64,000 nt of DNA from NCBI GenBank assembly GCA_030651035.1, contig JAUSCK010000173.1, positions 4,177 to 68,176 of the forward strand, read 5' to 3'. Numbering within the stretch: the stretch's first letter is position 1; every line of letters begins with the position of its first letter. This DNA is from Elusimicrobiota bacterium. Lineage in GTDB: Bacteria; Elusimicrobiota; Elusimicrobia; Elusimicrobiales; UBA9959. Positions 14,334-35,738 of this stretch are shown here, in pieces. The position numbers and the translations under genes were made by a program. The notes beneath the pieces were generated by a model. It searched no databases. It was given only the letters and a program-made list of their open reading frames with translations, and had not been told where the DNA came from.

Positions 14334-14366
14334 ATTATAGCGGCGAGGTATGACAAGGGGTTGTCG
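14334..14366 (-). promoter_or_regulatory. Palindromic box CGACAACCCCTTGTCA + 11 nt + TATAAT (duplicate sbcD promoter)
   Basis: On the minus strand the order is CGACAACCCCTTGTCA, TACCTCGCCGC, TATAAT, 10 nt, ATG (14323). It is a near-copy of 16944-16976. Confidence 0.6.
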
Positions 14367-14390
14367 CTGGTGGGACGGATCCCGCGCTGG

Positions 14391-15554
14391 CTATAGCTCC
14401 AGGAGGCCGAAAATATCCTGCCAGGGCACGATCTTTATACCGTCCAGCAGCCGCGCGCGCGGCACCGGCGCCGCGCAGAAAAGGGACGCCTCCGGGAAAT
14501 CCCGCCCAAACGATTTAAGCCCCCTGAGCCGGGCGGAGTCAGGGGCGCGCGAGGATTTTATCTCTATCGCAAAAATCTTGCCTGCCGGAGTTTCAATTAT
14601 CAGGTCCACCTCAGCGCCGTCTTTTGTTCTGTAAAAAGACATAGTGTAATCTTTGCCGGCGTAATCAATGAGCCTGGCTATCTCGCAAACTATAAAATGC
14701 TCAAAGACGTCCCCGTACTCCGAAGTTCCCGGGTGGAGCGGGACCGAAAGCTTACCGCACACGGCCCGGTGGACACCTGTGTCGAAAAAGTAGAATTTTG
14801 GGTGCTTGGCAAGCTGTTTCCGGGCCGACTTGGTGAATGCCGGCAGCAAAAAGCCTATCAGGGTGTCCTGCAGCACCTGGAAATACTCCTGCACTGTCTT
14901 GTAGCTAATCCCGGTTTCCTTGGCAATATTGGAGTAGTTAAGAATGTTTCCGTTTTCAAAAGCGGCCAGCGGAAGAAAGCGCAGGAAGGCGCCTATATTG
15001 CGGGTTATAGCTTCGGCGGCTATCTCTTCCTGCAAATAAGTGTTCACATACGCTTTTAGGGACCTGTGCGCGGACTCTTCATTTTCCTCAGAATAAATGC
15101 TTGGCAAAGTTCCTATTCGCAGCGCTTTATCAAGCGAGAAAAGCGGCCCACACTCAAGGTGGGTCAGCGGGTGGAGGTGGCAGGTCCAGGCCCTGCCCGC
15201 CAGCAGGTTGGCCTGCGCCCTTTTCAATTTTCGCGCGCTTGAACCGCTTAGGCAGAACACGGGAGGCTTTCCCGGGGATGTCATTATTGACTGCACTTCG
15301 TTCAGCAACTGTGGTACGCGCTGTACCTCGTCAATTATGACATGGGTTTTGCTTTTATCACGCGCCAGGACTTCCTCCCGGAACAGGGACGGGTTCGCCG
15401 CCAGCCTGGTATATTCGTCAGATTTTAAAAGATCATAGTAAATGGTTTCCGCTTCGGAGAAGGTTTTTCTCAACAGGGTGCTTTTGCCGGTTTGCCGCGG
15501 GCCAAACAGGAAGAAGCTTTTATCTCTTGGAAGTTCTAATCTTCTTTTAAACAT
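14391..15554 (-). CDS. AAA+ ATPase (AAA_14) with C-terminal DUF4143 nuclease-like domain
   Basis: 387 aa. It has Walker A FGPRQTGKSTLL, Walker B VIIDEVQ and a C-terminal GAEVDLIIE...FAIEIKSS motif. Confidence 0.85.
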   Translation of the reverse strand: MFKRRLELPRDKSFFLFGPRQTGKSTLLRKTFSEAETIYYDLLKSDEYTRLAANPSLFREEVLARDKSKTHVIIDEVQRVPQLLNEVQSIMTSPGKPPVFCLSGSSARKLKRAQANLLAGRAWTCHLHPLTHLECGPLFSLDKALRIGTLPSIYSEENEESAHRSLKAYVNTYLQEEIAAEAITRNIGAFLRFLPLAAFENGNILNYSNIAKETGISYKTVQEYFQVLQDTLIGFLLPAFTKSARKQLAKHPKFYFFDTGVHRAVCGKLSVPLHPGTSEYGDVFEHFIVCEIARLIDYAGKDYTMSFYRTKDGAEVDLIIETPAGKIFAIEIKSSRAPDSARLRGLKSFGRDFPEASLFCAAPVPRARLLDGIKIVPWQDIFGLLEL

Positions 15555-15562
15555 ATAGCTCT

Positions 15563-15591
15563 ATTATACCGTCTTATTTAGAGGCGGTCAA
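15563..15591 (-). promoter_or_regulatory. Canonical sigma70-like promoter TTGACC-17-TATAAT for the AAA+ ATPase gene
   Basis: On the minus strand the order is TTGACC (15591-15586), 17 nt, TATAAT (15568-15563), 8 nt, ATG (15554). There is no Shine-Dalgarno sequence, so the transcript looks near-leaderless. Confidence 0.65.
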
Positions 15592-15737
15592 CCTATTTCA
15601 GCTAGCATTTGTATGTTTTTCATTTATCCGCCGGCGCCGCAAACCGTGCCCCCAACTCCTTCGCGGCAAGAGCCTTCTCCCTGGCGAGGCCGACCCTAAT
15701 GGCATCGATCAGAGCGAGGAGCTCGTATAATTTCCTG

Positions 15738-15791
15738 TCATTTTCGGCGGCCAGGGCCGAAGGCGTTTATCTCTAGTTTAATGGGTCTCAT
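15738..15791 (-). pseudogene. sbcC: sbcC 5' stub (first ~13 codons) left behind downstream of full-length sbcD
   Basis: MRPIKLEINAFGPGRRK* compares with the SbcC N-terminus MRPIKLEINAFGPYKSG. The ATGA overlap with the sbcD stop is preserved. Homology to 14157-14195 ends near 15754. Confidence 0.75.
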
Positions 15792-16933
15792 TCTTCTTCC
15801 CCCTGCGCTTTTTCAGCCACGGCTACGCCTTCTTTAAAGGCGGCCGCCTGCTCTTTGGACAGCTCAGCCGGGGTAACCTGCTTATAGAACGAGGTGAAAA
15901 GTTCCAGCGGGCCTTTACCGCACTGTTCGCGGGTCATGGCGACACCGGCGGACGGGGCGAAGAGCGGCCTTTCTATATGCAGGGTATTGGGATAAACTTC
16001 GCGGAGGCGGCCCATGGCGTCGAACACGGGGCCGTCGTCCAGGACCCTGGCTAAAATATAATCATCGCTGCGCTTGTCGCCGCGGCCGGCTTTAATTATT
16101 TCGTCAAGCTTGCCTTCTACAACACGCAGCTCCCGGCGCAGGGTTATGGGGATATCTTTCAGGGCGCAAGCGCCTTTGGCGTCTATTTCGCCCAGGATGA
16201 ACCGCTTTTTATGGTCTTTTTCGGAGAAGGAATATTTATAAAGGGAGCCGGAATAGACGATATTGTCCGCCTGCTTCTGGGGACCGTGCAGATGGCCCAG
16301 CGCGGTATAGCTGAAGCCCGAGAAAATGCTTTTATCCACAGCTTCGCTGCCGCCGATGGAGAGCGGGCGCTCTGATTCGCTGGTGGCGCCGCCGGTCAGG
16401 AAGACGTGGGCTAGGGCTACCGAGCGGGTGTTTTTGGGGTGGGCAGCTTTCAGGCGCGCAACCAGGGCGGCGAGGCCGGCGTTCTGGTCTTTCAGGCTTG
16501 CGTCTTTAAGGCGGTCGCGGAAGAGTTCGGTGCCGGCATAGGGGAGAGGATAGACCAGGACTTTTCCGTGCTTGTCCTGCAGTTCTACCGGTGAGATATC
16601 GGCTTTCAGGTCGCCGCGGATGAAGAGGTTGTTTGATTCAAAGACCCTTGAGCCGAAGTCCAGGCGCTCGGGGCTATCGTGGTTGCCGGCGATGAGGATG
16701 ACGGGGATTTTCAGGGTGAGGACCAGCGTGGACAGGGTTTCGTCGCAAAGCTGCACGGCTTCCGGCGGCGGGACGGCCCGGTCATAAATATCTCCGGAGA
16801 TGAAGATGGCGTCGGGCTTTTCGGCCTTGGCGAGTTCAAGAAGCTGGGCTAAGGCATGGGCCTGGTCGTCTATCAGGCGGTTCTCGAATAGGAGTTTACC
16901 CAGGTGCCAGTCGGATGTGTGGATGAATTTCAT
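15788..16933 (-). CDS. sbcD: SbcD nuclease subunit (Mre11-like)
   Basis: Start taken at ATG 16933 (MKFIHTSDWHLGK). It has the metallophosphoesterase motifs DWHLG, SGDIYD, GNHD and GHLH. Confidence 0.92.
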   Translation of the reverse strand: MKFIHTSDWHLGKLLFENRLIDDQAHALAQLLELAKAEKPDAIFISGDIYDRAVPPPEAVQLCDETLSTLVLTLKIPVILIAGNHDSPERLDFGSRVFESNNLFIRGDLKADISPVELQDKHGKVLVYPLPYAGTELFRDRLKDASLKDQNAGLAALVARLKAAHPKNTRSVALAHVFLTGGATSESERPLSIGGSEAVDKSIFSGFSYTALGHLHGPQKQADNIVYSGSLYKYSFSEKDHKKRFILGEIDAKGACALKDIPITLRRELRVVEGKLDEIIKAGRGDKRSDDYILARVLDDGPVFDAMGRLREVYPNTLHIERPLFAPSAGVAMTREQCGKGPLELFTSFYKQVTPAELSKEQAAAFKEGVAVAEKAQGEEE

Positions 16934-16943
16934 AGTATGAGTA

Positions 16944-16976
16944 ATTATAGCGCTGCCCTGCGACAAGGGGTTGTCG
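16944..16976 (-). promoter_or_regulatory. Palindromic box CGACAACCCCTTGTCG + 11 nt + TATAAT (sbcD promoter)
   Basis: On the minus strand the order is CGACAACCCCTTGTCG, CAGGGCAGCGC, TATAAT, 10 nt, ATG (16933). Confidence 0.6.
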
Positions 16977-17075
16977 CTGGGCTACCTATCTCAGTTAACC
17001 CAGCGCACTCGTACCCTGCCCAGGTTTAAGGTCACAAATTGTGACCTTAAAGCCATACAGACTCTGTTTTATCCC

Positions 17076-19358
17076 TTAGTTTACAAGAAAGGCCTTTACC
17101 CAGGCCTGCAGGGACTGGCCTTTTATCTTGAGCTGGGTTTTTGCCGTTTCCACGGCCAGCCAGTCGCGGGTTTTTTCCAGCATCGGCTCCCATTCGCTGC
17201 GGCGGGCGGCGTATTTTGCTTCCAGCGTTTTAAGGATCACCATTGTGAAGGCCAGGACCTGGTCTTTGGCGCTGGCGCCGGCAAGGGCTTTTTGGAAGCC
17301 GGCCCAGTTAAGGCCCAGCATGTGGAAGATCGATTCCTGCAGGGCAAAACCGCCTTCCAGGCGCTGACAGCCGAGTATTATGAGAAGGTCGTCCTGCGGC
17401 GGAGTAAAGGACGGGATCGACATGCTCATCCTGGCACGCGGACGACTGATCATTCCCGGTTTATATTCAGCCATGCTGGACTGTAGGTTGAAGCAGCGCT
17501 TCATACTCATAGCCCGGGGAGCGGCGACGCTCATAGACATGGACATATTCATGTCGCAGTCGCATACTTCATTTAAGGCCCCCCAGCCTTTTACCGGGAC
17601 CACCGCTATTTGGCGCAGGGCGATTTCGCCTTTCTGTTTTTCGCCGGCTTTTCTTTCCTGCACGCCCACAAAACTGGTGCCGGCGCTGGCCAGGGTGTAT
17701 TCTTTGGCAAGGGCGACGGCCTCGCTTTCCTTTCCGGCGCTTTCCAGCTCTCTTACTTTAGCGCGGGCCCAGAGAACAGAAAGTGGGGCAAAAGAGTTTT
17801 CCACCTGCGCGACGGCGATCTTGAAAGATTGCTTTTTGCCGGCGAACTCGCCGCTAAACTCTACTGTTTCGGGCAGCTTGCCTTTTGGAAGCCTGAGATA
17901 AAAAGAATCGAAACCGCCGGTAAAGATAACGGAGGGAACGCCGGAGGGCTCGGCGGTTTTCACGCCGCAATCTACTTTTACTTCCGACAGACAGCCGCCT
18001 CTGATGGCGCCGTAGAGCCTGAGCATAGGCGGCTCGATGCGCTCCGCGGGGGCTATCATTAGGGAAAGCCCTTTGCCGGCGCGGGAGGCGCTTTTAAGCA
18101 GATGCTCGTTGGGGCCGTGACCGATGCCCACAAGGTGCAGGCGGGTTCCGGCAGAGTTCTTTGTCTGCGCTACGGCAGCGATGTCTGATTCGTTGCCGAT
18201 GTCGCCGTCGGTCAGGACTATGATGTCCCTGTCTTTTGAAGGCGCGCTGTAAATATCACGCAGCGGGGCCAGCAGCTCGGTGCCGCCCAGGTCGGCCTGC
18301 ACTTTATTAAGCCATTGCAGGGCCAAGGAGAGGGAATCTTTGTCCATGGCGAGGGAGGAGGCGAACAGCTTTTCGAAGGAAGAGCCGAACCTGTAGACGT
18401 TAAACTTGTTGCCGGGCGCCAGGCTTTTTAAAAGTATTTGCAGCGCCTGCTTAGACTGACTTATTGAATCCCCCTGCATGGAGCCGGAGCAGTCCAGCAC
18501 GAAAACCAGCTCGGAGGCGGGTTTCTTAAGCGTTAGTTTCTGCGCAGGCAATGAGAAATCTACGCCGAGGTAGGAGTAGTTTTTATCCGCGGCACAGTAG
18601 GCGCGGGTTTTGGCCGCGTCTTCAAGCTGGAGGTCCAGGATAAAATCCTGGTCCATCGGGACCAGGTCGCCGGAGAGGCTCACTATGGTTTTGCCGCCTT
18701 TGAAGACCGTCTTCACGCGGTGGGAATGGGATTCTATCCCTTTCAGGTCGGCCTTATTTTCAATAACCACTTCGATCTCTATGCCGTAGGGCACGGACAG
18801 GGCGAAAGGCGGGTTTAGCTGGGCGTCCACTGGGATGCCGTCTTTGTCCGGCATTTTCGCGGGCACGTAGCGCGGGCCTATGGCGGTGGGCAGGAAGAAG
18901 CGCATGGCGCCGCCGCGGTACTCCAGGCGGGAGACCAGCTCTGTTTCTATTACCGCCTCCTGGCCGGGCAGCAGGTTGCCGGCTGAAATTGTGAAGAGGT
19001 TGGGCCTTTCTTCGTCCAGCAGGTAGGCGGAATTGCCCTTTTCCAGGGCCTTGTCGTAAAGGTCGTAGGCTTTCCGGCGCTCTTCGGCCGCGCCGGTTAT
19101 TATTTTGCCGCCGGTTTCTATCCTGAAGCCGCAGACCGCGGCGTCGGCTGGCAGCGGGAACTTGTAAATGGCCTCTATGACTATTTTCTCGTCGTTGCGG
19201 AAGCGCTGGCGGAGCACTGTCCTGGCGCCGCTGCCGATTATTACGGTCCTGGCGCTTACGCCGGTGAGCGGCACTTTGTGGTTTTCTTCCGAAAGCAGGT
19301 CTACGGCATTCAGAATTTCGGCTTTAGTGTTCTTTAGTTTTGAAATATCTATTTTCAT
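17076..19358 (-). CDS. VIT domain + von Willebrand factor A (vWA) domain protein
   Basis: 760 aa. The N-terminal VIT-like region is followed by vWA MIDAS motif VFVLDCSGSM and ...VLTDGD. There is a Met/Ser-rich linker and an alpha-helical C-terminal domain. Confidence 0.8.
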   Translation of the reverse strand: MKIDISKLKNTKAEILNAVDLLSEENHKVPLTGVSARTVIIGSGARTVLRQRFRNDEKIVIEAIYKFPLPADAAVCGFRIETGGKIITGAAEERRKAYDLYDKALEKGNSAYLLDEERPNLFTISAGNLLPGQEAVIETELVSRLEYRGGAMRFFLPTAIGPRYVPAKMPDKDGIPVDAQLNPPFALSVPYGIEIEVVIENKADLKGIESHSHRVKTVFKGGKTIVSLSGDLVPMDQDFILDLQLEDAAKTRAYCAADKNYSYLGVDFSLPAQKLTLKKPASELVFVLDCSGSMQGDSISQSKQALQILLKSLAPGNKFNVYRFGSSFEKLFASSLAMDKDSLSLALQWLNKVQADLGGTELLAPLRDIYSAPSKDRDIIVLTDGDIGNESDIAAVAQTKNSAGTRLHLVGIGHGPNEHLLKSASRAGKGLSLMIAPAERIEPPMLRLYGAIRGGCLSEVKVDCGVKTAEPSGVPSVIFTGGFDSFYLRLPKGKLPETVEFSGEFAGKKQSFKIAVAQVENSFAPLSVLWARAKVRELESAGKESEAVALAKEYTLASAGTSFVGVQERKAGEKQKGEIALRQIAVVPVKGWGALNEVCDCDMNMSMSMSVAAPRAMSMKRCFNLQSSMAEYKPGMISRPRARMSMSIPSFTPPQDDLLIILGCQRLEGGFALQESIFHMLGLNWAGFQKALAGASAKDQVLAFTMVILKTLEAKYAARRSEWEPMLEKTRDWLAVETAKTQLKIKGQSLQAWVKAFLVN

Positions 19359-19783
19359 TTTAGTTCCCCTTTCCCCTCTTTGGCTATAAGACGCGCATAA
19401 TTGACTATATTCCTTACCAGCCGGCCCTCGGCTTCTTCCGCATCGCGATTTACCTGTAAAACTATGCCGGGCGCCAGTTCATACAGGGCCACTACGCTGC
19501 GCCCTGCCGGCTGGCTATTGCTCAGGTGCGGCAGGCGGGAGTGGACGGCGGGTTCGCCGGCCGGCTTTTTGCCGCTTAAAATTGTGGCGATGGCTTCCAG
19601 GGTGAGGCCTTTTTTCTGCAGATCACGGATCTTCAGCAGGCGGGCGAGGTGCCCGCTGTCATAAAAACCGCCGCGCCCCCTGCCGGCCGGTGGGTCTATT
19701 ACGCCCTGCTGTACGTAAAACCTTATAGTCCGGCGTGAGAGCCCGGTCTGCTCGCAAAGCTGATCGATCGTATATTTGCCCAT
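19355..19783 (-). CDS. MerR-family transcriptional regulator
   Basis: YTIDQLCEQTGLSRRTIRFYVQQGVI...HLARLLKIRDLQKKGLTLEAI. It overlaps the vWA gene by 4 nt. TATAAT lies 5 nt upstream of the ATG. Confidence 0.85.
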   Translation of the reverse strand: MGKYTIDQLCEQTGLSRRTIRFYVQQGVIDPPAGRGRGGFYDSGHLARLLKIRDLQKKGLTLEAIATILSGKKPAGEPAVHSRLPHLSNSQPAGRSVVALYELAPGIVLQVNRDAEEAEGRLVRNIVNYARLIAKEGKGELK

Positions 19784-19890
19784 GCTTTATTATAGCAGTA
19801 GACTGTCGTTTTTCCAAGTGTCGTAATAGCCGTTGACGGCACCCGACATGGTGGTGTCGCGGGGCGTGGAAATATCTTTCCGTGGTTTCT

Positions 19891-20241
19891 CTATTGCGGG
19901 CTAATGTGATGCCCGTGGCTGGTTGTGTGTTTCTGATTAGGTCTTGGGGACTCAACAGGAAGAAAAGCCAGGCGGATACCGTAAACCGCCAGTATTCCCT
20001 GGAGCGTGCCCACTTCCGGATTGCCGGTGGGCGATAGCGTTTTATAAAGGGTGGTGCGGCTCATTTTAGTGGCTTTAGCCAGCGCGCCCATGCCGCCGTT
20101 GGCGCCGACCACCCTGCGAATAGCGACAAGGAGGTATTTAAGTTCCCCCCCTTCGGCAGCGGCGTTAATATATGCGGCAGCCTCATCGCGGTTAACGAGG
20201 ACTTTTTTCATGTAACTGTCGTAAGATACTGTGTTTTTCAT
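19891..20241 (-). CDS. Addiction-module antidote protein (HigA-like HTH antitoxin)
   Basis: ...ALAKATKMSRTTLYKTLSPTGNPEVGTLQGILAVYGIRLAF. It overlaps the upstream toxin gene by 4 nt. Confidence 0.8.
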   Translation of the reverse strand: MKNTVSYDSYMKKVLVNRDEAAAYINAAAEGGELKYLLVAIRRVVGANGGMGALAKATKMSRTTLYKTLSPTGNPEVGTLQGILAVYGIRLAFLPVESPRPNQKHTTSHGHHISPQ

Positions 20242-20567
20242 TTTAGCCCCCGATATTGCTCCCAGAATCGCTGCGCCTTGCGTATGTCTCTACGCTGCGT
20301 TTGTTTATCACCGCCGCAAAGCAGCAGGACTATAACCGGACCATCCTCGCCGTAATAGACACGGTAGCCGGGCCCGTAGTGAATACGCAGTTCCCAGACC
20401 TCTTGCCCAACGCCTCGATGATCTCCAAAGTTGCCGTTCACAACACGATCCAATCTGGCGCGTATCGCGGCTTTTGCCGTCAGGTCAGAGATGGCGTCCA
20501 GCCATTCTCCGAAAAGGTCTTTCCCATTTTTACGGTAATTCCGCAACCTGCGTTCCTGCGGCTCCAT
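20238..20567 (-). CDS. Addiction-module killer protein (RelE/HigB-like toxin)
   Basis: ...FGEWLDAISDLTAKAAIRARLDRVVNGNFGDHRGVGQEVWELRIHYGPGYRVYY... Confidence 0.8.
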   Translation of the reverse strand: MEPQERRLRNYRKNGKDLFGEWLDAISDLTAKAAIRARLDRVVNGNFGDHRGVGQEVWELRIHYGPGYRVYYGEDGPVIVLLLCGGDKQTQRRDIRKAQRFWEQYRGLK

Positions 20568-20580
20568 ATACGCCCCCTAT

Positions 20581-20609
20581 AGTGTATCCCACAGAAGACA
20601 TATTGTCAA
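20581..20609 (-). promoter_or_regulatory. Sigma70-like promoter TTGACA-17-TACACT upstream of the toxin gene
   Basis: On the minus strand the order is TTGACA, 17 nt, TACACT, then a 13-nt leader with a GGGGG RBS, then ATG (20567). Confidence 0.6.
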
Positions 20610-20632
20610 GGCTTTTCTGCTTCCTCGCTTAT

Positions 20633-20665
20633 GTTATAGCAGACGAACCCGACAACGGCTTGTCG
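20633..20665 (-). promoter_or_regulatory. Palindromic box CGACAAGCCGTTGTCG + 11 nt + TATAAC
   Basis: It is embedded in a 13-bp perfect hairpin ACGAACCCGACAA/TTGTCGGGTTCGT. The spacer GGTTCGTCTGC is shared with the boxes at 28597 and 35706. Confidence 0.5.
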
Positions 20666-20738
20666 GGTTCGTAACAGCTATTTTCGTCTCTTGCCTTCTA
20701 ATTGGCGGGCTTTGGCGCTGTCGGCGTGGGCTCGCACT

Positions 20739-21143
20739 TTATCGCCCAGGTCGAAGTAGACGGCGCCGCGGCGCTCGTAGGCGGGGGCGCACCGCGGCTG
20801 TAAGCAATTCCTCGTGGTCGGGCTTCAGCTTAAGGCCCCAGGCCGCGGTTTCTGCGGCGTCTTTATAGCGCTCGCATTCGATCAGGCATTCCGCCTTGCC
20901 CTGCAGGGAGTCCAGGCGCGCCGGGTTGCGCTGCAGGGCCGCCTCAAAATCAGTCAGGGCCGAAACCGGGCGGCCGAGGGCCTGCAGGCAGATGGCGCGC
21001 AGGTAGCGCGTCTCCGTGCGGCGGGGCCAGCTATGGTTCAGCAGGTCGGCGGCCGCGGTAATCGCGCTGCCGGCCGCCCAGCGGTAAAGCCTGCCGGACA
21101 GGCCGGTTACAAGTTTCAGCAGGCACACCAGGAAGATCCTCAT
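20739..21143 (-). CDS. TPR-repeat protein with N-terminal signal/anchor
   Basis: 134 aa with TPR-like helices (ALTDFEAALQRNPARLDSLQGKAECLIECERYKDAAETAAWGLKLKP). Its ATG overlaps the upstream frame's TGA (ATGA). Confidence 0.6.
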   Translation of the reverse strand: MRIFLVCLLKLVTGLSGRLYRWAAGSAITAAADLLNHSWPRRTETRYLRAICLQALGRPVSALTDFEAALQRNPARLDSLQGKAECLIECERYKDAAETAAWGLKLKPDHEELLTAAVRPRLRAPRRRLLRPGR

Positions 21144-21548
21144 TTTGCCTCCGGCTTTACGTGGTATTGTTTTATAAGCTCATGGGCGCGGTCCGCCAGC
21201 GGTTTAAAGTGGCATGGTTTTGGAGCTGCAAGGTCCGCGCCCATATTTAAAAAGTCTTGCGCCTGATAAGTATCATCAATATGCCCGGTTATCACCCACA
21301 CATAGACCCGTTTTTTTTGTTACTTTTAAGCGCCTTAAGCAGCTTTATTCCGTCAGGGCCGTGATGATAAAGGTTAGCTATAAAGATCAGCGGCGGCTCG
21401 CGCCGGGCTTGCGCGAGGGCTTTGTAACCGTCAATAAAGGTGACAATGTCGGCTTCTATCTTGAAAGTGGCGAAACCCCGCAGCAGCTGGCCTATAAACT
21501 GCTTCTCGCCGTCGATTATTATTATTTTAGGCCTTTATATTTTTTCCA
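21140..21548 (-). pseudogene. CheY-like receiver-domain gene disrupted by a frameshift at an A8 tract and lacking a canonical start
   Basis: My translation gives ...KIIIIDGEKQFIGQLLRGF...LIFIANLYHHGPDGIKLLKALKSNKK, then A8 (T8 at 21311-21318 on the plus strand), then in the -1 frame RVYVWVITGHIDDTYQAQDFLNMGADLAAPKP...KQYHVKPEAK*. The upstream ATG at 21547 is followed by an in-frame TAA at codon 5. Confidence 0.6.
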
Positions 21549-21716
21549 TGATTTATCCCCGCAGTTTTGCGCACAGCTGCATTGGCTGAACGAGCAGGGC
21601 TGGCAGGCGTTCATGGCCTCGCCCCGCTGCCGCGCCATCTCTTTAAAGGTGGCGCAGCCGGAGGTCAGGGACAGAAGGACCAAGAGCAGGGAGGTTCTGA
21701 GGTTCCTCATAATCAT
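21522..21716 (-). CDS. Small Cys-rich probable lipoprotein
   Basis: MIMRNLRTSLLLVLLSLTSGC... is a signal peptide with a lipobox-like SGC. The mature part has five more Cys. Confidence 0.55.
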   Translation of the reverse strand: MIMRNLRTSLLLVLLSLTSGCATFKEMARQRGEAMNACQPCSFSQCSCAQNCGDKSWKKYKGLK

Positions 21717-22369
21717 GCTTCCTGCTCAGCCTCCGGGAGGTATTTCTGCATGAGCTTTATGAACCGGGGCTCGTCGCGGAGCGCGTCGAGGTCCGTGTCC
21801 ACTTCGATGTGCCTGCGCTCGCGCAGGCCGTTCTCCAGGGCCAGCTCGAAGTAGCGGAGGGCTTCTTCCGTTTCTTCGTCCAGCGCGTACAGGCAGGCCA
21901 GGGAATAGAGCGCCCAGGGGATCATGTGGCCGTCTTCCGAGGGCTGCATCGTGAGATACTTCTGCAGGCAGCTCCGGGCCGCGCCGGGTTTGCCGGTTTT
22001 CGCGTAGACGTTGGCCTGGTCGTAGTAGACCACGGAGGAATTAGGGTTGAGCTCCAGCGCTTTGGCGTAATCCTTAAGCGCCCTTTTGAAATCGCTCTTC
22101 GCGTTATAAGAATTCCCCCGGTAATCGTAGGCCTTCGCGTAGCCGGGGTCTATGCCTATCGCGGCAGAGTAATCTTTGATCGCCGTGTCATAGTCATGCT
22201 TGAGGTGATAGGAAAAGCCCCGGCTGAGATAGGCCTCTTTGTTCCCGGGGTCAAGTTTTATGGCCTCGCTGAAACTTTCTATGGCCTTGTCGCACTTGCC
22301 CTCCTTGCCGTAAACAAGCCCCTGCTCATAAAAGGCGCTTCCGCGGTCAGTACATTCTTTGGTGTCCAT
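21713..22369 (-). CDS. TPR-repeat protein
   Basis: 218 aa with repeated ...A..y..Al.l.P motifs (AIESFSEAIKLDPGNKEAYLSRG; AIKDYSAAIGIDPGYAKAYDYRG; ALKDYAKALELNPNSS). Confidence 0.85.
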   Translation of the reverse strand: MDTKECTDRGSAFYEQGLVYGKEGKCDKAIESFSEAIKLDPGNKEAYLSRGFSYHLKHDYDTAIKDYSAAIGIDPGYAKAYDYRGNSYNAKSDFKRALKDYAKALELNPNSSVVYYDQANVYAKTGKPGAARSCLQKYLTMQPSEDGHMIPWALYSLACLYALDEETEEALRYFELALENGLRERRHIEVDTDLDALRDEPRFIKLMQKYLPEAEQEA

Positions 22370-22417
22370 ATATTTATTCCTCCGTTTCGTTGCGATTTAC
22401 TGTTTCCCTTCATCTAT

Positions 22418-22450
22418 ATTTTACAATTGCCCGACGACAAGGGCGTGTCG
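22418..22450 (-). promoter_or_regulatory. Palindromic box CGACACGCCCTTGTCG + 11 nt + TAAAAT
   Basis: It lies upstream of the TPR gene. A 48-nt leader with a GGAGGAA RBS precedes ATG 22369. Confidence 0.5.
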
Positions 22451-22465
22451 CACCCCTTTTGCGCT

Positions 22466-23050
22466 TTAGAAGAAATCCGCGAGCTGCTGCCAGAGTTTTT
22501 TAAGCGGGCCGCCGCGCCTGTGGGAGCCGGGGAGGTCGGTGTTCCAGGTTTTAAGGAACGGGTAGCAGGTCAGGGCCACGGCGCCCAGGTAGGGCTGGGC
22601 GGCGTATTCTTTGGGGCAGTCCAGCAGCTCGGGCACAGGGTAGGCCAGGCGGGACAGGGGCAGCTCAAGCAGTTCGGCGGCGGCCGCGGGCATGCCCTTA
22701 AGCAGGGAGCCGCCGCCCGTAAGGATTATCCCGCCGGGCAGGTCCGGGCAGGCGGACTTCTGCACCGCTTCGTTAATAAGCTCGAAAATTTCTTCGAGGC
22801 GCGGCTGTATTAAATCCAGGATGTCTTTGGCCCCTATTTCCACCTGGGTGCACCGGTCGGCTTTCATAACAGCTATGCGCTTCTCTTTATCTATCAGGCT
22901 GGAGTAGCAGGCTCCGTATTTTTCCTTAAGCTCGCGGGCCCAGCCAACGGTGGTGTTAAGGCCGTGCGCGATGTCTTTTGTGATGTTGTCCCCGCCAATA
23001 CCGCAGGGGAGATGCCTGCGGGTTGTTTCGAGCTTTGCGGCTGGAACGTA
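22466..23050 (-). pseudogene. ftsA: 5'-truncated ftsA/pilM-family actin-like ATPase (C-terminal half only)
   Basis: The frame is open from the codon right after the upstream gene's TAA: YVPAAKLETTRRHLPCGIGGDNITKDIAHGLNTTVGWARELKEKYGACY...GGIILTGGGSLLKGMPAAAAELLELP. It matches the FtsA C-terminal half. The N-terminal ~200 aa are absent. Confidence 0.7.
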
Positions 23051-24349: not shown

Positions 24350-24368
24350 ATTATTGTTCCTTACAAAT

Positions 24369-24401
24369 AGTATACACCCCTGCTATGACAAGGGGTTGTC
24401 G
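24369..24401 (-). promoter_or_regulatory. Palindromic box CGACAACCCCTTGTCA + 11 nt + TATACT
   Basis: It lies upstream of the MBL hydrolase gene. A 19-nt leader with AAGGAA precedes ATG 24349. Confidence 0.55.
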
Positions 24402-25960: not shown

Positions 25961-25983
25961 ACAAGCTGTATAGCTGCAAACAA

Positions 25984-26018
25984 AAGCCGCCGGGGAAGTC
26001 CCCGGCGGTTTTGTTTTT
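25984..26018. terminator. Bidirectional rho-independent terminator between protease and pgm
   Basis: GCCGCCGGGG-aagt-CCCCGGCGG is flanked by an A-run and a T-run. Confidence 0.75.
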
Positions 26019-26053
26019 GACAAATACCGTAAAAAACCCACGCCGTCTTTTTT

Positions 26054-27691
26054 CTAGGCGGGAAGACTTTTTATCAGGGCTTCGGCTTCCTGGAAGATGC
26101 GGGCCAGGTGGGCCTCGGAGCGGAAGCTTTCGGCGTAGATCTTGTAAACCTCCTCGGTGCCCGAGGGGCGCGCGGCGAACCAGCCGCCGGGGGTGATAAC
26201 CTTTATGCCGCCTATCGGTTCGTCGTTGGCTGGCGCGCGCGCAAGCACGGCCTCTATCTTTTCCCCCGCCAGTTCCTTGACCTTCACCTGCTCCGGGGTC
26301 AGCGTCTTCAGCAGCTTCTTCATGGCCGCGGTGGCCGGCGCGTCCTGCCGGCGGTAGAAGAATTCGCCGTATTTTTCGGTAAGCTGCTTATACAGCTGCG
26401 CCGGGTCCTTGCCCAGGCGCGCGGTTATCTCGGCCGAAAGCAGCGCCATTATTATGCCGTCCTTGTCCGTGCTCCAGGACCCGCCGTAGAAACCGAGGAA
26501 CGAAGCCCCCGCGCTTTCCTCCCCGCCGAAGCCGAGGCTGCCGTCCAGCAGCCCGTCCACGAACCATTTGAACCCTACCGGGACCTCGCAGAGCCGGCGC
26601 TCCAGCCCCGCCGCAACGCGGTCTATCATGGAGCTCGAGACGGCGGTCTTCCCCACGGCGGCGTCCGCGCGCCACCCGGGCCGGTTCTGGAACAGGTAAT
26701 AGATGGCCGCCGACAAATAATGGTTGGGCGGCAGCAGGCCGGCGCGGGTAACTATGCCGTGCCGGTCATAGTCGGTGTCGCAGCCGAAACTTATGTCGAA
26801 ATTGTCCTTCATTCCTATAAGCCGCCGCATGGCGTAGGGCGAAGAGGGGTCCATGCGTATCTTGCCGTCCCAATCGGCCGTCATGAAGGCGAATGATTTG
26901 TCCACCGCATCGTTGACCACGGTGAGGTTTATGCCGTACAGCTCGGCTATCTTCTCCCAGTATTTCACGCCCGCGCCGCCCAGCGGGTCCGCGCCCATTT
27001 TTATGCCCGCGCCGCGTATGGCGTCCATGTCTATCACGCCGGCCAGCCCCCCGACATATTCCGCGGCAAAATCGTAGCGACGCGTGGTGTTGGCGTTCAG
27101 CGCGGCGGCCAGCTGCATCCGCTTCACGCCGGCGAGGCCGTTCTTAAGGATCTCGTTGGCGAGGTCCTGCACCTGGCCGGTTATCTCCGGGCCGGCGGGG
27201 CCGCCGCTGGGCGGGTTGTATTTATAGCCGCCGTCGGAGGGCGGGTTATGCGAAGGGGTGATAAGTATGCCGTCGGCGAGGCCGGTGGTGCGCCCGGTGT
27301 TATGGGCCAGTATGGCGCGGGACAGGGCCGGCGTGGGCGTGTAGCCGCTGTCCGAGTCTATCATCACGCACACGCCGTTGGCGGCCAGCACTTCAAGCGC
27401 GGTCTCGAAGGCCGGCACCGACAGCGCGTGCGTGTCTATGCCCATGAACAGCGGGCCGTCTATGCCGGCGGCTTTGCGGTACTGGCAGATGGCCTGCGTT
27501 ACCGCCAGGATGTGCCGCTCGTTGAACGAACGCGCCAGCGAACTGCCCCGGTGCCCGGAGGTACCGAAAGAGATCCGCTGCTCCGCCTCGGCGGGATCCG
27601 GAACTTCCTTGTAGTAGGCCGCCAGCAGTTTGGGAATATCCGTCAGCAGCTCTGCAGGCAGCGTTTTCCCGGCATGTTCGCTTATCGGCAT
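26054..27691 (-). CDS. pgm: Phosphoglucomutase (alpha-D-glucose-phosphate specific)
   Basis: 545 aa. It has FGTSGHRG, active-site TPSHNP, the metal loop GCDTDYDRHG and GGEESAG. Confidence 0.93.
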   Translation of the reverse strand: MPISEHAGKTLPAELLTDIPKLLAAYYKEVPDPAEAEQRISFGTSGHRGSSLARSFNERHILAVTQAICQYRKAAGIDGPLFMGIDTHALSVPAFETALEVLAANGVCVMIDSDSGYTPTPALSRAILAHNTGRTTGLADGILITPSHNPPSDGGYKYNPPSGGPAGPEITGQVQDLANEILKNGLAGVKRMQLAAALNANTTRRYDFAAEYVGGLAGVIDMDAIRGAGIKMGADPLGGAGVKYWEKIAELYGINLTVVNDAVDKSFAFMTADWDGKIRMDPSSPYAMRRLIGMKDNFDISFGCDTDYDRHGIVTRAGLLPPNHYLSAAIYYLFQNRPGWRADAAVGKTAVSSSMIDRVAAGLERRLCEVPVGFKWFVDGLLDGSLGFGGEESAGASFLGFYGGSWSTDKDGIIMALLSAEITARLGKDPAQLYKQLTEKYGEFFYRRQDAPATAAMKKLLKTLTPEQVKVKELAGEKIEAVLARAPANDEPIGGIKVITPGGWFAARPSGTEEVYKIYAESFRSEAHLARIFQEAEALIKSLPA

Positions 27692-27718
27692 ATTTATCCC
27701 CTTGATTATTCGCGCTGG

Positions 27719-28576
27719 TTAAGTCCGATATTCTCTCAAATGGCGAGGCGCTTGGCAAATGCGCGCCCGCTGTGCGGCCCCTGAAGGCTCCCGCGGCTTT
27801 TTCAGTTCCCTTACACCGCCCAGGGACCTGACGGCCGTCTTTATTTCGCCGACGCATACTTTCGCATTGTGCAGCACCTCGTGCTCGCCGAACCGGAGCG
27901 TCGCCCAGCCGAAGCGCTTCAGCCATTTGTCCCTGGCGGCGTCTTTAGCGTGCTGCCCGGGGGTGGAATGGCAGCAGCGCCCGTCGCATTCGATATCCAG
28001 CTTTCCCCTTTTACAGAATAGCGCGAAGTCCAGCCGGTATTTCACCTTTCCGCCGCGCAGGATAACATGCTCCCGGCGAAAGCCGAGCCCGGCGGCTTTC
28101 AGCGCGGCGCACATCATGTTTTCTACGGGGACCACGTTGAAGACTCCGAGGATATCTTCGGCCTGCCCCAGGCGCCGCAGCGGGGCGTAGCCGAAAGAGA
28201 CCCTGCTGCCGCTGGTATTAAGGATTTCGCGGGGAAGCTTAATGAGCGGCCCCAGGCTGTATTTCACGTAAAGCTGCAGCGCCCCCGGATGTCCGGGCTC
28301 ATCCGGGAGAATATCGATCCTGCGCCAGGTAGAGCAGCCCGCGACTTCGGCATAACAGGCTATTCTTTTCCCGGCGGCCTTAAAGCAGGCCGGCTGGTAG
28401 AAAGCTATGTGCGTAAAGCCGCCCCTCGGCGCTTTCCTGAGCGGTATCCTGTACCAGCGGTCCTCCGCCGCGATCGCCAGGTCGCGCGGCGCCCTCAGGA
28501 CCGCGATCAGGGCGGTTTTTTCCGGCGGGGATTTCACGCGCCGGGCGCCGCAATTTATAATCGTTTCTTTGTACAT
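27719..28576 (-). CDS. DUF559 (Vsr-like endonuclease fold) domain protein with uncharacterised N-terminal domain
   Basis: The C-terminus KYRLDFALFCKRGKLDIECDGRCCHS...DAARDKWLKRFGWATLRFGEHEV fits the DUF559 pattern. The N-terminal ~150 aa (WYRIPLRKAPRGGFTHIAFYQP...) are unassigned. Confidence 0.75.
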   Translation of the reverse strand: MYKETIINCGARRVKSPPEKTALIAVLRAPRDLAIAAEDRWYRIPLRKAPRGGFTHIAFYQPACFKAAGKRIACYAEVAGCSTWRRIDILPDEPGHPGALQLYVKYSLGPLIKLPREILNTSGSRVSFGYAPLRRLGQAEDILGVFNVVPVENMMCAALKAAGLGFRREHVILRGGKVKYRLDFALFCKRGKLDIECDGRCCHSTPGQHAKDAARDKWLKRFGWATLRFGEHEVLHNAKVCVGEIKTAVRSLGGVRELKKPREPSGAAQRARICQAPRHLREYRT

Positions 28577-28596
28577 ACGCCTCTTGCCGCATAAAT

Positions 28597-28629
28597 AGCA
28601 TAGCAGACGAACCCGACAAGGGCCTGTCG
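28597..28629 (-). promoter_or_regulatory. Palindromic box CGACAGGCCCTTGTCG + 11 nt + TATGCT
   Basis: It lies upstream of the DUF559 gene. The spacer is GGTTCGTCTGC. Confidence 0.5.
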
Positions 28630-28931
28630 GGTTGGCGTAACGCGGAGCGTGTATTTTCTCCCGAATTTCCCGCCCCGCCGGCTCAGACGGGCTCCGTACC
28701 GCCGGGCTGGAATTTCCAGAAATGCGCGATGTCCATATCCGCCGGGATATTGTCGCCGTGGGCGCCCCCGAACAGCTTTACGATAGTCCCGGCGACCGAA
28801 GTTATAGAATATTCGTCCATATCAGTGAAAAGCGGCCCGTCCCCCGACCTTTTAAAACAGACCTTTGGCCTATGGCGGCGTAGGCCCTTTGGCACTTATC
28901 AATAAAGGCGCATATACGTATACTAATACTA

Positions 28932-34805: not shown

Positions 34806-34818
34806 CGCGGATATTATT

Positions 34819-35061
34819 TCACTGCGCCGCGGCGTCTAATTCGATTATGCGGCAGCCGATCCGGGCGGGCGACTCGTTGAAAAGTTCTATCCTGATCCTG
34901 CCGGTTTTGCGCAGGTGAATAAGGAAATCGGCGGCTTTAACGGGGTCCAAGCCCGCCACTTCGGGAAAGTTCACGCTGAGGACAGAGTGGGAGAAGATCA
35001 GGTACTCCCGGAGCGCGGCGACAGCCGCTTTATCGTCGATAGCTTTGTCTTTCAATATCAT
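34819..35061 (-). CDS. Hypothetical 80-aa protein, operonic with the LuxR gene
   Basis: Track ORF with an AAGGGAGG RBS upstream and a 13-nt gap to the next gene. Confidence 0.5.
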   Translation of the reverse strand: MILKDKAIDDKAAVAALREYLIFSHSVLSVNFPEVAGLDPVKAADFLIHLRKTGRIRIELFNESPARIGCRIIELDAAAQ

Positions 35062-35140
35062 CTAGCCTCCCTTGGCGACATTATTAAGAACCGGCGGAGC
35101 CTTTTGCCCGTTCAGGCAGCGCCTCTTCTCCTATTCTAAT

Positions 35141-35172
35141 AAAAAACCGGAGGCAAAAACCTCCGGTTTTTT
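35141..35172. terminator. Bidirectional terminator downstream of ssb
   Basis: AAAAAACCGGAGG-caaaaa-CCTCCGGTTTTTT. Confidence 0.75.
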
Positions 35173-35185
35173 ATTTCCGGGCGGA

Positions 35186-35662
35186 TTATTTCCGGCGGAC
35201 GGCCTTGGCCGGCCTGGGGGCCTGGGCCGGTTCTCCCGGCCAGCCCGCGTCTTCAACGTGCTCGCCGGGGGCGTGGTCCGCGGGGCCGGGCGCGGGCTCG
35301 CCTTCCGCCGCGGGTTTCTCGCCCGTGAACTCTATGCCGTCCACGTAGACGAACAGCTTGGAATGGTGCTTGCCGTCCTCTTTGCCGTCCCACTGCTCCA
35401 GCACCAGGTGGCCCTCCACGAACACCTGCCGCCCCTTGTGCAGCTTGGCCGCCAGGTCGGCCAGTTTGCGCCCGGGCTCGTGGTTGAAGGCCTTCATGTT
35501 CAGCCACACCGGGGTTTCCTCCCACTCGCCGGTCTGCGCGTTCTTGCGCACATTGTGCACGGCGAAGCCCAGGTTGGCTACCTTGCCGCCGTTCTTGAAC
35601 TCCGTCACCTCCGGGTCCCGCGTCAGCCGCCCGATCAGCATCACTTTATTCAGGTTTCCCAT
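35186..35662 (-). CDS. ssb: Single-stranded DNA-binding protein
   Basis: The OB fold reads MGNLNKVMLIGRLTRDPEVTEFKNGGKVANLGFAV...VWLNMKAF. The tail is Pro/Ala/Gly-rich and ends ...PRPAKAVRRK, with no acidic DDIPF-type tip. Confidence 0.88.
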   Translation of the reverse strand: MGNLNKVMLIGRLTRDPEVTEFKNGGKVANLGFAVHNVRKNAQTGEWEETPVWLNMKAFNHEPGRKLADLAAKLHKGRQVFVEGHLVLEQWDGKEDGKHHSKLFVYVDGIEFTGEKPAAEGEPAPGPADHAPGEHVEDAGWPGEPAQAPRPAKAVRRK

Positions 35663-35705
35663 AATGCCCCCTTGCCGAGTTTATACAAATCCCTGCCGCA
35701 CAAAT

Positions 35706-35738
35706 AGCATAGCAGACGACCCCGACAAGGGTGTGTCG
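35706..35738 (-). promoter_or_regulatory. Palindromic box CGACACACCCTTGTCG + 11 nt + TATGCT (ssb upstream)
   Basis: The spacer is GGGTCGTCTGC. A 43-nt leader with a GGGGG RBS precedes ATG 35662. Confidence 0.5.

Follow-up and report, generated by a model that had tools for sequence, protein, structure and literature searches.

A conserved palindromic box at promoters of DNA repair genes in Elusimicrobia, a probable target of a WYL-domain regulator

[quoted passage not shown] The first-pass annotation listed seven such promoters and named as possible explanations an operator of a LexA-like repressor or a lineage-specific promoter element. All seven were found, but the total is eight, since the promoter at 11075-11107 had been overlooked (Table 1). 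Each of the eight has the structure CGACA-N6-TGTCR, 11 nt, TAnnnT, is placed upstream of a gene and oriented toward it, and is followed by a start codon 10–65 nt 3' of the -10. The originally described spacing was correct. At sites 11092, 14351 and 24386, the promoter-proximal half reads TGTCA and not TGTCG. TGTCGG is read at three window sites. The spacer sequence said to be common to three copies is identical in two of them (20650 and 28614), but different in the third (35723).

Table 1. Box-containing promoters and the additional palindrome of the window, with the genes behind them.
Feature	Position	Strand	Palindrome	Spacer	-10	Gene(s) behind the box
Motif promoter	11075-11107	-	11092-11107 CGACAAGCCTTTGTCA	11 nt	TATATT (11075-11080)	DUF4062/HATPase_c_4, 9477-11039
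Motif promoter	14334-14366	-	14351-14366 CGACAACCCCTTGTCA		TATAAT (14334-14339)	43-codon mini-sbcD ORF, 14192-14323 (ATG 10 nt past the -10)
Motif promoter	16944-16976	-	16961-16976 CGACAACCCCTTGTCG		TATAAT (16944-16949)	sbcD, 15788-16933 (mRNA near-leaderless)
Motif promoter	20633-20665	-	20650-20665 CGACAAGCCGTTGTCG	GGTTCGTCTGC	TATAAC	Gp49-like toxin, 20238-20567; HI1420-type antitoxin, 19891-20241
Motif promoter	22418-22450	-	22435-22450 CGACACGCCCTTGTCG		TAAAAT	TPR protein, 21713-22369
Motif promoter	24369-24401	-	24386-24401 CGACAACCCCTTGTCA		TATACT	metallo-beta-lactamase/RMMBL hydrolase, 23051-24349
Motif promoter	28597-28629	-	28614-28629 CGACAGGCCCTTGTCG	GGTTCGTCTGC	TATGCT	DUF559 endonuclease-like, 27719-28576; phosphoglucomutase, 26054-27691
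Motif promoter	35706-35738	-	35723-35738 CGACACACCCTTGTCG	GGGTCGTCTGC	TATGCT	ssb, 35186-35662
Ninth palindrome, perfect	19844-19859		CGACACCACCATGTCG (read on minus strand)		none at 11 nt	

Two of the promoters had been assigned to copies of sbcD. The one at 16944 does drive this gene, but the "copy" behind 14334 is a mini-ORF in which the 5' end of sbcD is joined to its 3' end; it overlaps the start of sbcC (11148-14195) and leads into it. Between the box at 20633-20665 and the toxin gene there is a second, canonical promoter (20609-20581). A merR-like gene (19355-19783) has a canonical promoter (TTGGAA-N17-TATAAT), and the ninth palindrome precedes the -35 of this promoter by approximately 26 nt; it may serve as an additional binding site of different geometry. 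A terminator-like hairpin (24453-24427) is located immediately upstream of the promoter of the hydrolase gene.

The analysis revealed that the box is strongly over-represented. The exact sequence CGACA-N6-TGTCG is present six times in the window (0.00 expected from shuffles) and 13 times if up to one mismatch is allowed (1.19 expected), while TGTCR-N11-TAnnnT occurs eight times (1.11 expected), in each case on the minus strand. The distance between palindrome and TAnnnT is essentially invariant: perfect palindromes that had not been selected for spacing were followed by TAnnnT at exactly 11 nt in 5/5 cases among the scan loci (see below) and in 5/5 cases in a close relative (L001). A -35 box is missing, as the best match at a spacing of 16–18 nt was 2/6 at any site, and the TTGTCR half is indeed too near the -10 to serve as one. 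A sigma-70 scan of positions 10900-28800 called none of the seven motif promoters within this range, but recovered three canonical promoters (15591-15563, 20609-20581 and 19817-19789), the first two of which had been recognized as canonical at the outset. In the lineage of the window, 6 of 14 sites have a TGn extended -10 and 8 of 14 have neither a -35 nor TGn; for the sites of other Elusimicrobia, the proportion with a TGn extended -10 is 62 of 75. Because the geometry is fixed and the -35 absent, these appear to be activator-dependent promoters and not targets of LexA repression.

The box is both enriched and conserved in Elusimicrobia. In the relative mentioned above (SbcD identity 89%), box, N11 and -10 are kept upstream of the sbcD and metallo-beta-lactamase orthologues and also at four other operons, one of them a TPR operon, with flanks that differ from those in the window. 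A scan of species-representative genomes, in which the 11-nt spacing was demanded and whose counts are lower bounds and partly selected, yielded at least 115 stretches. At least 53 of these are labelled Elusimicrobia (from at least 25 assemblies) and at least 10 further ones are from bins without a label, which mostly gave several matches each, giving an Elusimicrobia total of at least 63 among the stretches listed; other taxa are represented there by one match per genome only. The spacer GGTTsGTCTGC and the box flanks are conserved across Elusimicrobia. The idea of a lineage-specific promoter element thus survives in the sense of a mark of activator-type promoters enriched in this group. We regard as negligible the probability that the box is a dispersed repeat or a mobile promoter cassette lacking a common regulator: about 51 nt are common to three copies at 76–92% identity (repeat family D3), but conservation is limited to box, spacer and -10, the flanks diverge, the box is kept by orthologous genes in the relative and across the assemblies, all eight promoter-type window sites face genes, and neither terminal repeats nor a transposition signature were found.

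The fixed gap to a -10-like hexamer, as well as the conserved spacer and flanks, would also suit direct reading of the box by a sigma factor, either an alternative one or one specific to the lineage, without a separate transcription factor. We consider this very improbable. The dyad symmetry reaches out to AACCCGACA...TGTCGGGTT, a pattern indicative of binding by a dimeric protein; moreover, the -10 is a standard sigma-70 TAnnnT, the 11-nt gap misfits the region 4/region 2 spacing, and in one locus (L106) a single palindrome has -10-like hexamers 11 nt off on both sides.

The proposed SOS-type character of the regulon was borne out by the motif search, because among the Elusimicrobia matches listed the box precedes recA (at least 7) and recQ (at least 6), as well as ssb (in L029 and L046, as in the window), radC, comM and a Y-family (IMS) polymerase gene. 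Further genes behind the box in Elusimicrobia encode (i) an AddA-like UvrD/PD-(D/E)XK helicase, a radical-SAM/HHH protein and an SbcD-like protein, and (ii) restriction-modification N6/D12 methylases, toxins, Y1 transposases and ORF6N proteins. The regulon therefore combines DNA repair and recombination with defence, toxin-antitoxin and mobile-element genes.

This gene content, including recA, ssb, the translesion (Y-family) polymerase, sbcCD and other nuclease genes, together with a 16-bp palindromic operator, is what would be expected of an Elusimicrobial LexA (SOS) operator, at which a LexA dimer would block RNA polymerase. Want of LexA is no argument against such a binder, because LexA-like proteins occur in at least two Elusimicrobiales MAGs (L052 and L093), where their genes (LexA_DNA_bind plus Peptidase_S24) are divergent from recA. 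However, in both relatives the lexA promoter (TTGCCT-N17-TATAAT) is devoid of the box, and the sole box lies approximately 150 nt from it and 11 nt from the proximal -10 of recA. LexA is almost always autoregulated, and the finding that lexA is not among the approximately 75 box-driven genes thus counts against LexA. LexA operators vary in position, whereas the box keeps a constant distance to the -10 of promoters lacking a -35. The recA regions contain a second conserved element, GTTAACATAAYRTT, at the upstream promoter, which is a better candidate for a LexA box, and the half-site and spacing of the box match the sites of WYL regulators, with the spacing being that of PafBC. To our knowledge, the box sequence also does not resemble LexA boxes. 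The original suggestion of a LexA-like repressor is, therefore, quite improbable, and the regulator is probably a different protein.

A candidate was found in a family of HTH-WYL-WCX proteins, which is associated with the box in several genomes: in L123 the gene (HTH_11-WYL-WCX) is directly behind a box, in L047, L133 and L137 homologues adjoin box-driven genes, and in L087 variant boxes are present on both flanks of the gene. A family search gave 92 matches (45–100% identity), and every named match is from Elusimicrobia. The candidate is a single gene (product of approximately 315–323 aa) adjoining tRNA and tuf. Residues R40, R44 and D45 of the recognition helix are invariant, the two arginines corresponding in position to those with which PafB reads the G bases of GTC (PMC8635444). 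Identity to DriD and PafBC is only 15–21%, but the family profile matched PafBC (2e-11) and DriD (4e-9) in the PDB, and the predicted fold matched DriD (6e-14) and PafBC (1.5e-12), with weaker matches to the repressors CapW and BrxR (1e-9 to 1e-7). The genome of the window very probably encodes a member of this family, P0187 (NCBI MDO8803796.1). Its gene lies outside the window and was assigned to the same MAG because Logan run SRR13727527 was the only one to contain P0187 and likewise the only one to contain the window proteins, and because their NCBI accessions, which carry the same organism label, are 1,182 apart.

We consider it likely that the box is bound by this homodimeric, Elusimicrobia-specific factor, which would act as a damage activator related to PafBC and DriD. 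Such a WYL-type damage system is of a kind already known, but so far undescribed in Elusimicrobiota. By analogy with PafBC, DriD and DdaA, single-stranded DNA arising from DNA damage would bind the WYL domain and release the winged-helix domains. The dimer would then occupy CGACA-N6-TGTCG at about -39 to -24, with the promoter-proximal half-site coinciding with the position of the PafB "-26 element", and would recruit housekeeping RNA polymerase, or adapt it, to promoters with a -10 (often TGn-extended) and without a -35. Its regulon would include sbcD, sbcC, ssb and nuclease genes in the window, and recA, recQ, radC, comM and the Y-family polymerase gene in relatives.

The same WYL protein might instead be a repressor or dual regulator that occludes the extended -10 and is freed by the damage signal, as in the case of BrxR and CapW, two WYL repressors to which the predicted fold also gave matches. 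A protein bound at -39 to -24 would share part of its site with the footprint of RNA polymerase, and at the TGn-bearing sites the -35 is perhaps dispensable; repression would fit equally well there, because an extended -10 could allow activator-independent transcription. Nevertheless, repression seems rather unlikely: every characterised WYL regulator of damage regulons (PafBC, DriD, DdaA, SiwR) activates, fold and profile are nearer to DriD and PafBC, the sites having neither -35 nor TGn remain, and a protein that docks on RNA polymerase needs an invariant spacing such as the 11 nt shared with PafBC, whereas a repressor does not.

The activator reading is consistent with several described systems. 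The PafBC motif, tGTCgg(N10)tA(N3)T (PMC8635444), has TGTC, 12 nt and TAnnnT in common with the box, likewise without a -35, at the RecA-NDp promoters of Actinobacteria, mycobacteria among them ("sigma adaptation"), and its damage regulon includes recA and ssb. In addition, recA has two promoters in the relatives with an adjacent LexA-like gene, as in mycobacteria, and the candidate shares the HTH-WYL-WCX architecture and the two recognition-helix arginines. In contrast, the PafBC site is non-palindromic, whereas the Elusimicrobial one is a full palindrome of 16–24 bp, and PafB/PafC form a heterodimer or fusion encoded at the Pup-proteasome locus, unlike the single gene described above, whose product is only approximately 15–17% identical to PafB and PafC.

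In Caulobacter crescentus, the homodimeric WYL activator DriD, which is the best fold match, binds optimally to CGACA-N5-TGTCG, and its site keeps a set distance to the -10 of promoters without a -35 (PMC13004042). The half-sites are the same and the DriD site covers the would-be -35 position, but in Elusimicrobia the central spacer is N6 and the palindrome is flanked by AACC/GGTT and not by ATA/TAT, protein identity is approximately 17–21%, and DriD controls a small regulon alongside SOS, whereas the Elusimicrobial box is also found at recA, recQ and ssb. The homodimeric activator SiwR of Mycobacterium smegmatis similarly recognizes an imperfect palindrome, which in the target promoter is located between positions -35 and -10, but controls only two adjacent DinB-superfamily genes and no genome-wide regulon. 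DdaA of Moraxellaceae (Acinetobacter), which binds CGWCA-N5-TGWCG and controls DNA-damage and defence genes (PMC12392091), differs in that the Elusimicrobial box has an N6 spacer and 11 nt to the -10, and that LexA-like genes persist in some Elusimicrobia. It is again a homodimeric WYL activator, however, and its regulon of recA, ssb, repair and anti-phage genes (restriction-modification, CRISPR) is paralleled here by the mix of repair genes with methylases, toxins and candidate defence genes.

The exact palindrome CGACA-N6-TGTCG occurred six times in the window, against 0.00 occurrences expected from dinucleotide-preserving shuffles, and 13 times (1.19 expected from the shuffles) when one mismatch was permitted. 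The composite pattern TGTCR-N11-TAnnnT, i.e. the box half-site followed by its -10 hexamer, was found eight times (1.11 expected), in every case on the minus strand. Reading of the individual sites showed that all seven box promoters listed in the first-pass annotation are present, and an eighth was identified. The genes driven by the box in the window are those of (i) the DUF4062 protein, (ii) a mini-sbcD ORF leading into sbcC, (iii) sbcD, (iv) a Gp49/HI1420 toxin-antitoxin pair, (v) a TPR protein, (vi) an MBL/RMMBL hydrolase, (vii) a DUF559 protein together with phosphoglucomutase, and (viii) ssb. The centre of the box is 6 bp at every site, the CGACA and TGTC bases show no variation among the 14 sites of the window's lineage, and a start codon lies 10–65 nt downstream of the -10 hexamer at all eight window sites.

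Coordinates of the features discussed (positions in the window, unless a locus of another contig or genome is named)
Feature	Coordinates	Remark
Probable defence island	820-8881	
ORF with Fic-like_C domain	8982-9437	
79-nt repeat	9295-9373 and 15963-16041	87% identity
Eighth box promoter	11075-11107	upstream of DUF4062/HATPase_c_4 gene
Split sbcD-sbcC operon	14157-16980	
AAA_14/DUF4143 ATPase gene	14391-15554	
sbcD	15788-16933	
Canonical promoters of the first-pass annotation	15591-15563 and 20609-20581	
Third canonical promoter	19817-19789	
Ninth perfect palindrome	19844-19859	
Toxin-antitoxin tandem promoters	20581-20665	
Toxin-antitoxin box promoter	20633-20665	-10 TATAAC
NRPS-type genes	38083-62224	
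Palindrome with -10-like hexamers on both sides	L106:80-95	
Conserved small ORF	L047:4136-4351, L137:2926-3120, L064, L088	61–64 aa
LexA-like genes	L052:6078-6960, L093:5200-6090	divergent from recA
GTTAACATAAYRTT	L026:6556-6569, L105:1544-1557, L120:6984-6997, L126:7272-7285	variant in L132

The box stands at a fixed distance from a sigma-70-type -10 hexamer, in promoters without a -35 element. At a spacing of 16–18 nt the best match to TTGACA did not exceed two of six positions, and a sigma-70 scan of positions 10900-28800 called none of the seven box promoters in that range. The two canonical promoters named in the first-pass annotation were recovered by the sigma-70 scan, which also yielded a third. 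Since the pattern used to search other genomes itself fixed the spacing, the constancy of the 11-nt distance was tested only on palindromes outside the selection made by this pattern; the invariance claimed earlier was borne out, with TAnnnT at exactly 11 nt in 5/5 such palindromes of the scan loci and in 5/5 of L001, a locus of a close relative. The consensus of 75 sites from other Elusimicrobia was aaccCGACAcgCCcTTGTCGGGtTggtcTGcTAtgcT, so that the dyad reaches AACCCGACA/TGTCGGGTT, and the spacer between the palindrome and the -10 is conserved at these sites. A TGn extended -10 was present in 62 of the 75, and in 6 of the 14 sites of the window's lineage.

Several sites depart from the common arrangement. 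The ninth perfect palindrome has no -10 at 11 nt and stands before a merR-like gene and its canonical promoter. In its centre (CCACCA) it is similar to variant boxes CGACAC(C/T)ACGCTGTCG, two of which flank a paralogous WYL gene in locus L087, and which are also found upstream of genes for Schlafen/AlbA_2 and DUF2779 proteins (L104, L106). The toxin-antitoxin operon carries tandem promoters, i.e. a box promoter with a weak -10 and, approximately 30 nt downstream, a canonical one (TTGACA-N17-TACACT). A palindrome in L106 is flanked on either side by a -10-like hexamer at a distance of 11 nt, one side facing a Y-family polymerase gene and the other running off the locus; a single dimer site of this kind may serve divergent promoters. 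L115 was checked for the same arrangement, and no convincing genes were found on either side of its palindrome.

Applied to species-representative genomes, the pattern CGACANNCCNTTGTCR-N11-TANNNT yielded at least 115 stretches. At least 53 of them, from at least 25 assemblies, are labelled Elusimicrobia, -ales, -aceae or Elusimicrobium, and at least 10 others belong to six bins without a taxonomic label, most of which gave several matches each. One of these bins carries an Elusimicrobial WYL protein, and another contains a recA locus near-identical to that of an Elusimicrobiales MAG. Non-Elusimicrobial taxa had one box per genome among the matches listed. Since Elusimicrobiota account for well under 1% of GTDB species, the box is very strongly enriched in Elusimicrobia. 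A scan of viral contigs with the box pattern gave seven single matches, which resemble chance occurrences and were set aside. The single matches in Actinobacteria (7 Streptomyces, Microbacterium, Actinotalea) might correspond to promoters under PafBC control; the ORFs downstream of them were uninformative, and these matches were likewise not retained.

Pfam analysis of the scan loci placed the box upstream of genes of (i) repair and recombination: recA (at least 7 genomes), recQ (at least 6), ssb, radC, a comM-type Mg-chelatase ATPase, a UvrD/PD-(D/E)XK helicase-nuclease and a radical-SAM/HHH repair-type protein (at least 2 each), a Y-family polymerase (IMS) and an SbcD-like phosphoesterase; (ii) defence and DNA modification: N6 and D12 DNA methylases and an AAA_14/DUF4143 ATPase; (iii) toxins and mobile elements: Gp49- and HigB-like toxins, Y1 transposases and ORF6N proteins; and (iv) an uncharacterised, conserved small ORF. 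The DNA-damage regulon proposed in the first-pass annotation was therefore correctly recognised: the box precedes sbcD, sbcC, ssb, an MBL nuclease-like gene and DUF559 in the window, and repair and recombination genes (recA, recQ, radC, comM, polymerase and helicase targets) across the Elusimicrobia assemblies recovered.

The relative represented by loci L001-L010 (89% SbcD identity), found in several groundwater metagenomes, has retained the box, the 11-nt spacer and the -10 at its orthologues of sbcD and MBL, at a rubredoxin-TPR operon and at three further genes, while the flanks around its boxes differ from those in the window. One of its contigs (L005; GCA_001823105.1, MHTO01000004.1) was deposited as 'Candidatus Wildermuthbacteria bacterium GWA2_46_15'; it is probably misbinned, since its G+C content is 53% and it has both the order of genes and the Elusimicrobial box in common with the window. 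The conserved small ORF, which looks leaderless and reads MTNKxRRSI(F/I)SARAGL...LRVYTLG..., lies directly downstream of a consensus box. The next gene is usually one of approximately 90 aa ('MGW...'), and in three loci the small ORF is located less than 2 kb from the WYL regulator gene. It gave no Pfam match and may be a small damage-induced effector.

The first-pass annotation had considered a LexA-like repressor as the protein binding the box, which is probably wrong; we regard binding by LexA as very unlikely. LexA-like genes (LexA_DNA_bind and Peptidase_S24 domains) are indeed present in two Elusimicrobiales MAGs, where they are divergent from recA. However, the lexA promoter itself (TTGCCT-N17-TATAAT, leaderless) has no box in either of them, and the sole box in the lexA-recA intergenic region lies 11 nt from the proximal -10 of recA, downstream of a separate canonical promoter (TTGACA-N17-TATACT). 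None of the approximately 75 box-driven genes is lexA, and the position of the box is invariant, whereas an SOS box of LexA is characterised by an operator in the lexA promoter and a varying position. At other recA loci, a second conserved element, GTTAACATAAYRTT, is placed just downstream of a TATAAT, approximately 25–60 nt upstream of the box, and includes the palindrome TGTTAACA/GTTAAC. This element is a candidate LexA operator; when tested as a possible LexA box, it was detected at recA only, in four loci, and not in the window. Since the canonical promoter, or the TATAAT associated with GTTAACATAAYRTT, lies upstream of the box promoter, recA appears to be served by two promoters in tandem, of which one is canonical and the other depends on the box. 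Mycobacterial recA is likewise under two controls, LexA and PafBC (PMC8223512).

The features of the box point to regulators of the WYL class. The in vivo motif of PafBC is tGTCgg(N10)tA(N3)T, whose 5' part, the "-26 element" (-23 to -28), stands in for the -35 in a mechanism named sigma adaptation (PMC8635444). TGTC followed by 12 nt and TAnnnT is exactly the arrangement seen in the window: TGTCR-N11-TAnnnY describes all eight sites (the last base is T in seven and C in the toxin-antitoxin box promoter), and three read TGTCGG. DriD, a homodimeric ssDNA-activated WYL activator, binds ATACGAC(N7)GTCGTAT, with CGACA-N5-TGTCG contained in the optimal oligonucleotide, at a fixed distance from the -10 of promoters without a -35 (PMC13004042). 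DdaA of Moraxellaceae binds CGWCA-N5-TGWCG and activates DNA-damage and anti-phage genes (PMC12392091), while the homodimer SiwR has a palindromic site between the -35 and -10 (PMC10693628). The box in the window thus has half-sites of the WYL class and a proximal half-site placed as in PafBC, but its centre is 6 bp instead of the 5 bp of DriD and DdaA, which argues against orthology with these two. PafBC proper is a PafB/PafC heterodimer or fusion with a non-palindromic site and a Pup-proteasome locus, whereas the candidate Elusimicrobial regulator is encoded by a single gene and the box is palindromic. The identity of the candidate to DriD is 17–21% (phmmer E ~1e-4). On these grounds (single gene, palindromic site, N6 centre, <21% identity) it was excluded from the families of PafBC, DriD and DdaA themselves; the Elusimicrobial WYL proteins form a clade of their own, whose named members all come from Elusimicrobia.

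No WYL gene was found in the window by a Pfam scan of all sizeable ORFs. In other loci, a box with N11 and TATACT lies immediately upstream of an HTH_11-WYL-WCX gene (L123, Elusimicrobium sp. RUG130), and WYL homologues are located beside box-driven genes (L047, L133, L137). With the L047 protein as a query, 92 relatives were retrieved (45–100% identity), all named ones being from Elusimicrobia. The gene is single (314–333 aa), adjoins a tRNA gene (L047, L137) and lies near tuf (L047, L134); no box was present within 13 kb of the orthologue of the GWC2_51_8 lineage (L134-L136). In L137, the contig encoding the candidate regulator P0187 (MDO8803796.1), a tRNA gene is followed by the WYL gene, two further genes and the box (CGACACGCCCTTGTCG ggttggtctgc TATGCT), which drives the leaderless small ORF. 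The window's genome very probably encodes P0187, because its accession, labelled "Elusimicrobiota bacterium", is 1,182 away from that of the window's SbcD (MDO8804978.1, 100% identical, from a MAG with the same label), and Logan run SRR13727527 is the only run containing P0187 and likewise the only one containing the window's NUDIX and MerR-like proteins. SSB and SbcD of the window had no exact match in the contig index, but shorter proteins of the window were recovered by such look-ups.

P0187 has the architecture HTH_11 + WYL + WCX. In the recognition helix of the family, ERSIQRD, residues R40, R44 and D45 are invariant, the two arginines in both the 17- and the 20-sequence family alignments. 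Judging from sequence, these arginines would read the GTC/GAC half-sites, as is typical for the class; their positions match those of the PafB arginines that read the guanines of GTC (PMC8635444). The family profile matched the solved structures of PafBC (2e-11), DriD (4e-9) and PafC (1e-8). The predicted fold of P0187 appears closest to DriD (6e-14) and PafBC (1.5e-12), with the repressors CapW and BrxR at 2e-9 and weaker; the model is of moderate confidence (pLDDT 71.6, pTM 0.34) and was applied to fold-family assignment only.

It is likely that the box is the binding site of an Elusimicrobia-specific homodimeric WYL-domain regulator acting like DriD and PafBC at -35-less promoters: the WYL protein would bind the box, and ssDNA on the WYL domain would turn transcription on. 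A more serious rival than LexA is repression, instead of activation, by the WYL protein, and the frequent TGn extended -10 could indeed make the promoters self-sufficient. However, activation is favoured by three features: 8 of the 14 sites in the window's lineage lack both a -35 and TGn, the fixed spacing is of the docking type, and the protein is of closer kinship to the activators DriD and PafBC. The box system is a new addition to the known class of WYL-controlled DNA-damage regulons. A literature search found no relevant LexA or WYL work in Elusimicrobia and, as far as the searchable literature shows, a WYL-type DNA-damage regulon has not been described in this phylum before.

Building on activation, we tentatively propose a broader scheme, whose chances we put slightly short of even: that in Elusimicrobiota a phylum-specific homodimeric WYL activator, combining a DriD-like palindrome with PafBC-type '-26' docking, may govern the DNA-damage response and, along with it, genes for defence, toxins and mobile elements. 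One symmetric site 11 nt from the -10 would then replace the -35, possibly on either side, and the circuit and LexA would coexist at the tandem recA promoters in at least some members, as in mycobacteria. If this is true, sigma-adaptation-like WYL activation would be a widespread and ancient strategy, not an actinobacterial peculiarity.

The ssDNA-sensing WYL-domain activators have recently emerged as a second, SOS-independent bacterial DNA-damage response and, to our knowledge, have been characterised in few lineages only (Actinobacteria, Caulobacter and Moraxellaceae). The phylum Elusimicrobiota is almost wholly uncultivated, and we know of no information on its gene regulation; it now gains a clean, testable regulon, with a box, a promoter architecture, a candidate regulator and a target list. 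The site is intermediate between two structurally solved mechanisms, with a palindrome as in DriD and a placement as in the -26 element of PafBC, and could therefore clarify the relationship between homodimeric systems and heterodimeric ones. In practice, the box allows DNA-damage and defence genes to be annotated in Elusimicrobia MAGs, and it marks several uncharacterised genes as candidates for induction by damage, namely those of the MBL/RMMBL hydrolase, the DUF559 protein, the TPR proteins, the leaderless small ORF and the DUF4062 protein.

The sbcD-sbcC operon of the window is split: sbcD is followed by a stub of the sbcC start, an inserted ATPase gene with its own canonical promoter (AAA_14/DUF4143; PADLOC candidate defence family PDC-S01), and a duplicated box promoter with a 43-codon 'mini-sbcD', in which the 5' end of the gene is joined to its 3' end and which overlaps the beginning of sbcC. 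In L001-L010, sbcD and sbcC are likewise apart, but with different small genes between them. A 79-nt repeat links the Fic-like_C ORF to sbcD: the N-terminal part of this ORF is a copy of a segment of the sbcD C-terminal region, a further scar of sbcD rearrangement. An Rfam search of the window gave no RNA family. The likely defence island comprises two HNH_2 endonucleases, a Schlafen-group-3 helicase (PADLOC PDC-S41, E = 2e-280), an AlbA_2/Schlafen protein, a helicase fused to a Peptidase_S24 domain and a MazG-like protein; no box was found upstream of these genes. Finally, the window contains a secondary-metabolite cluster, unusual for Elusimicrobiota, with very large NRPS-type genes (2469, 2778 and 1872 aa), a penicillin amidase and an aromatic amino-acid lyase; the 1872-aa protein, the only one of the three that was domain-scanned, has Condensation, AMP-binding and PP-binding domains.
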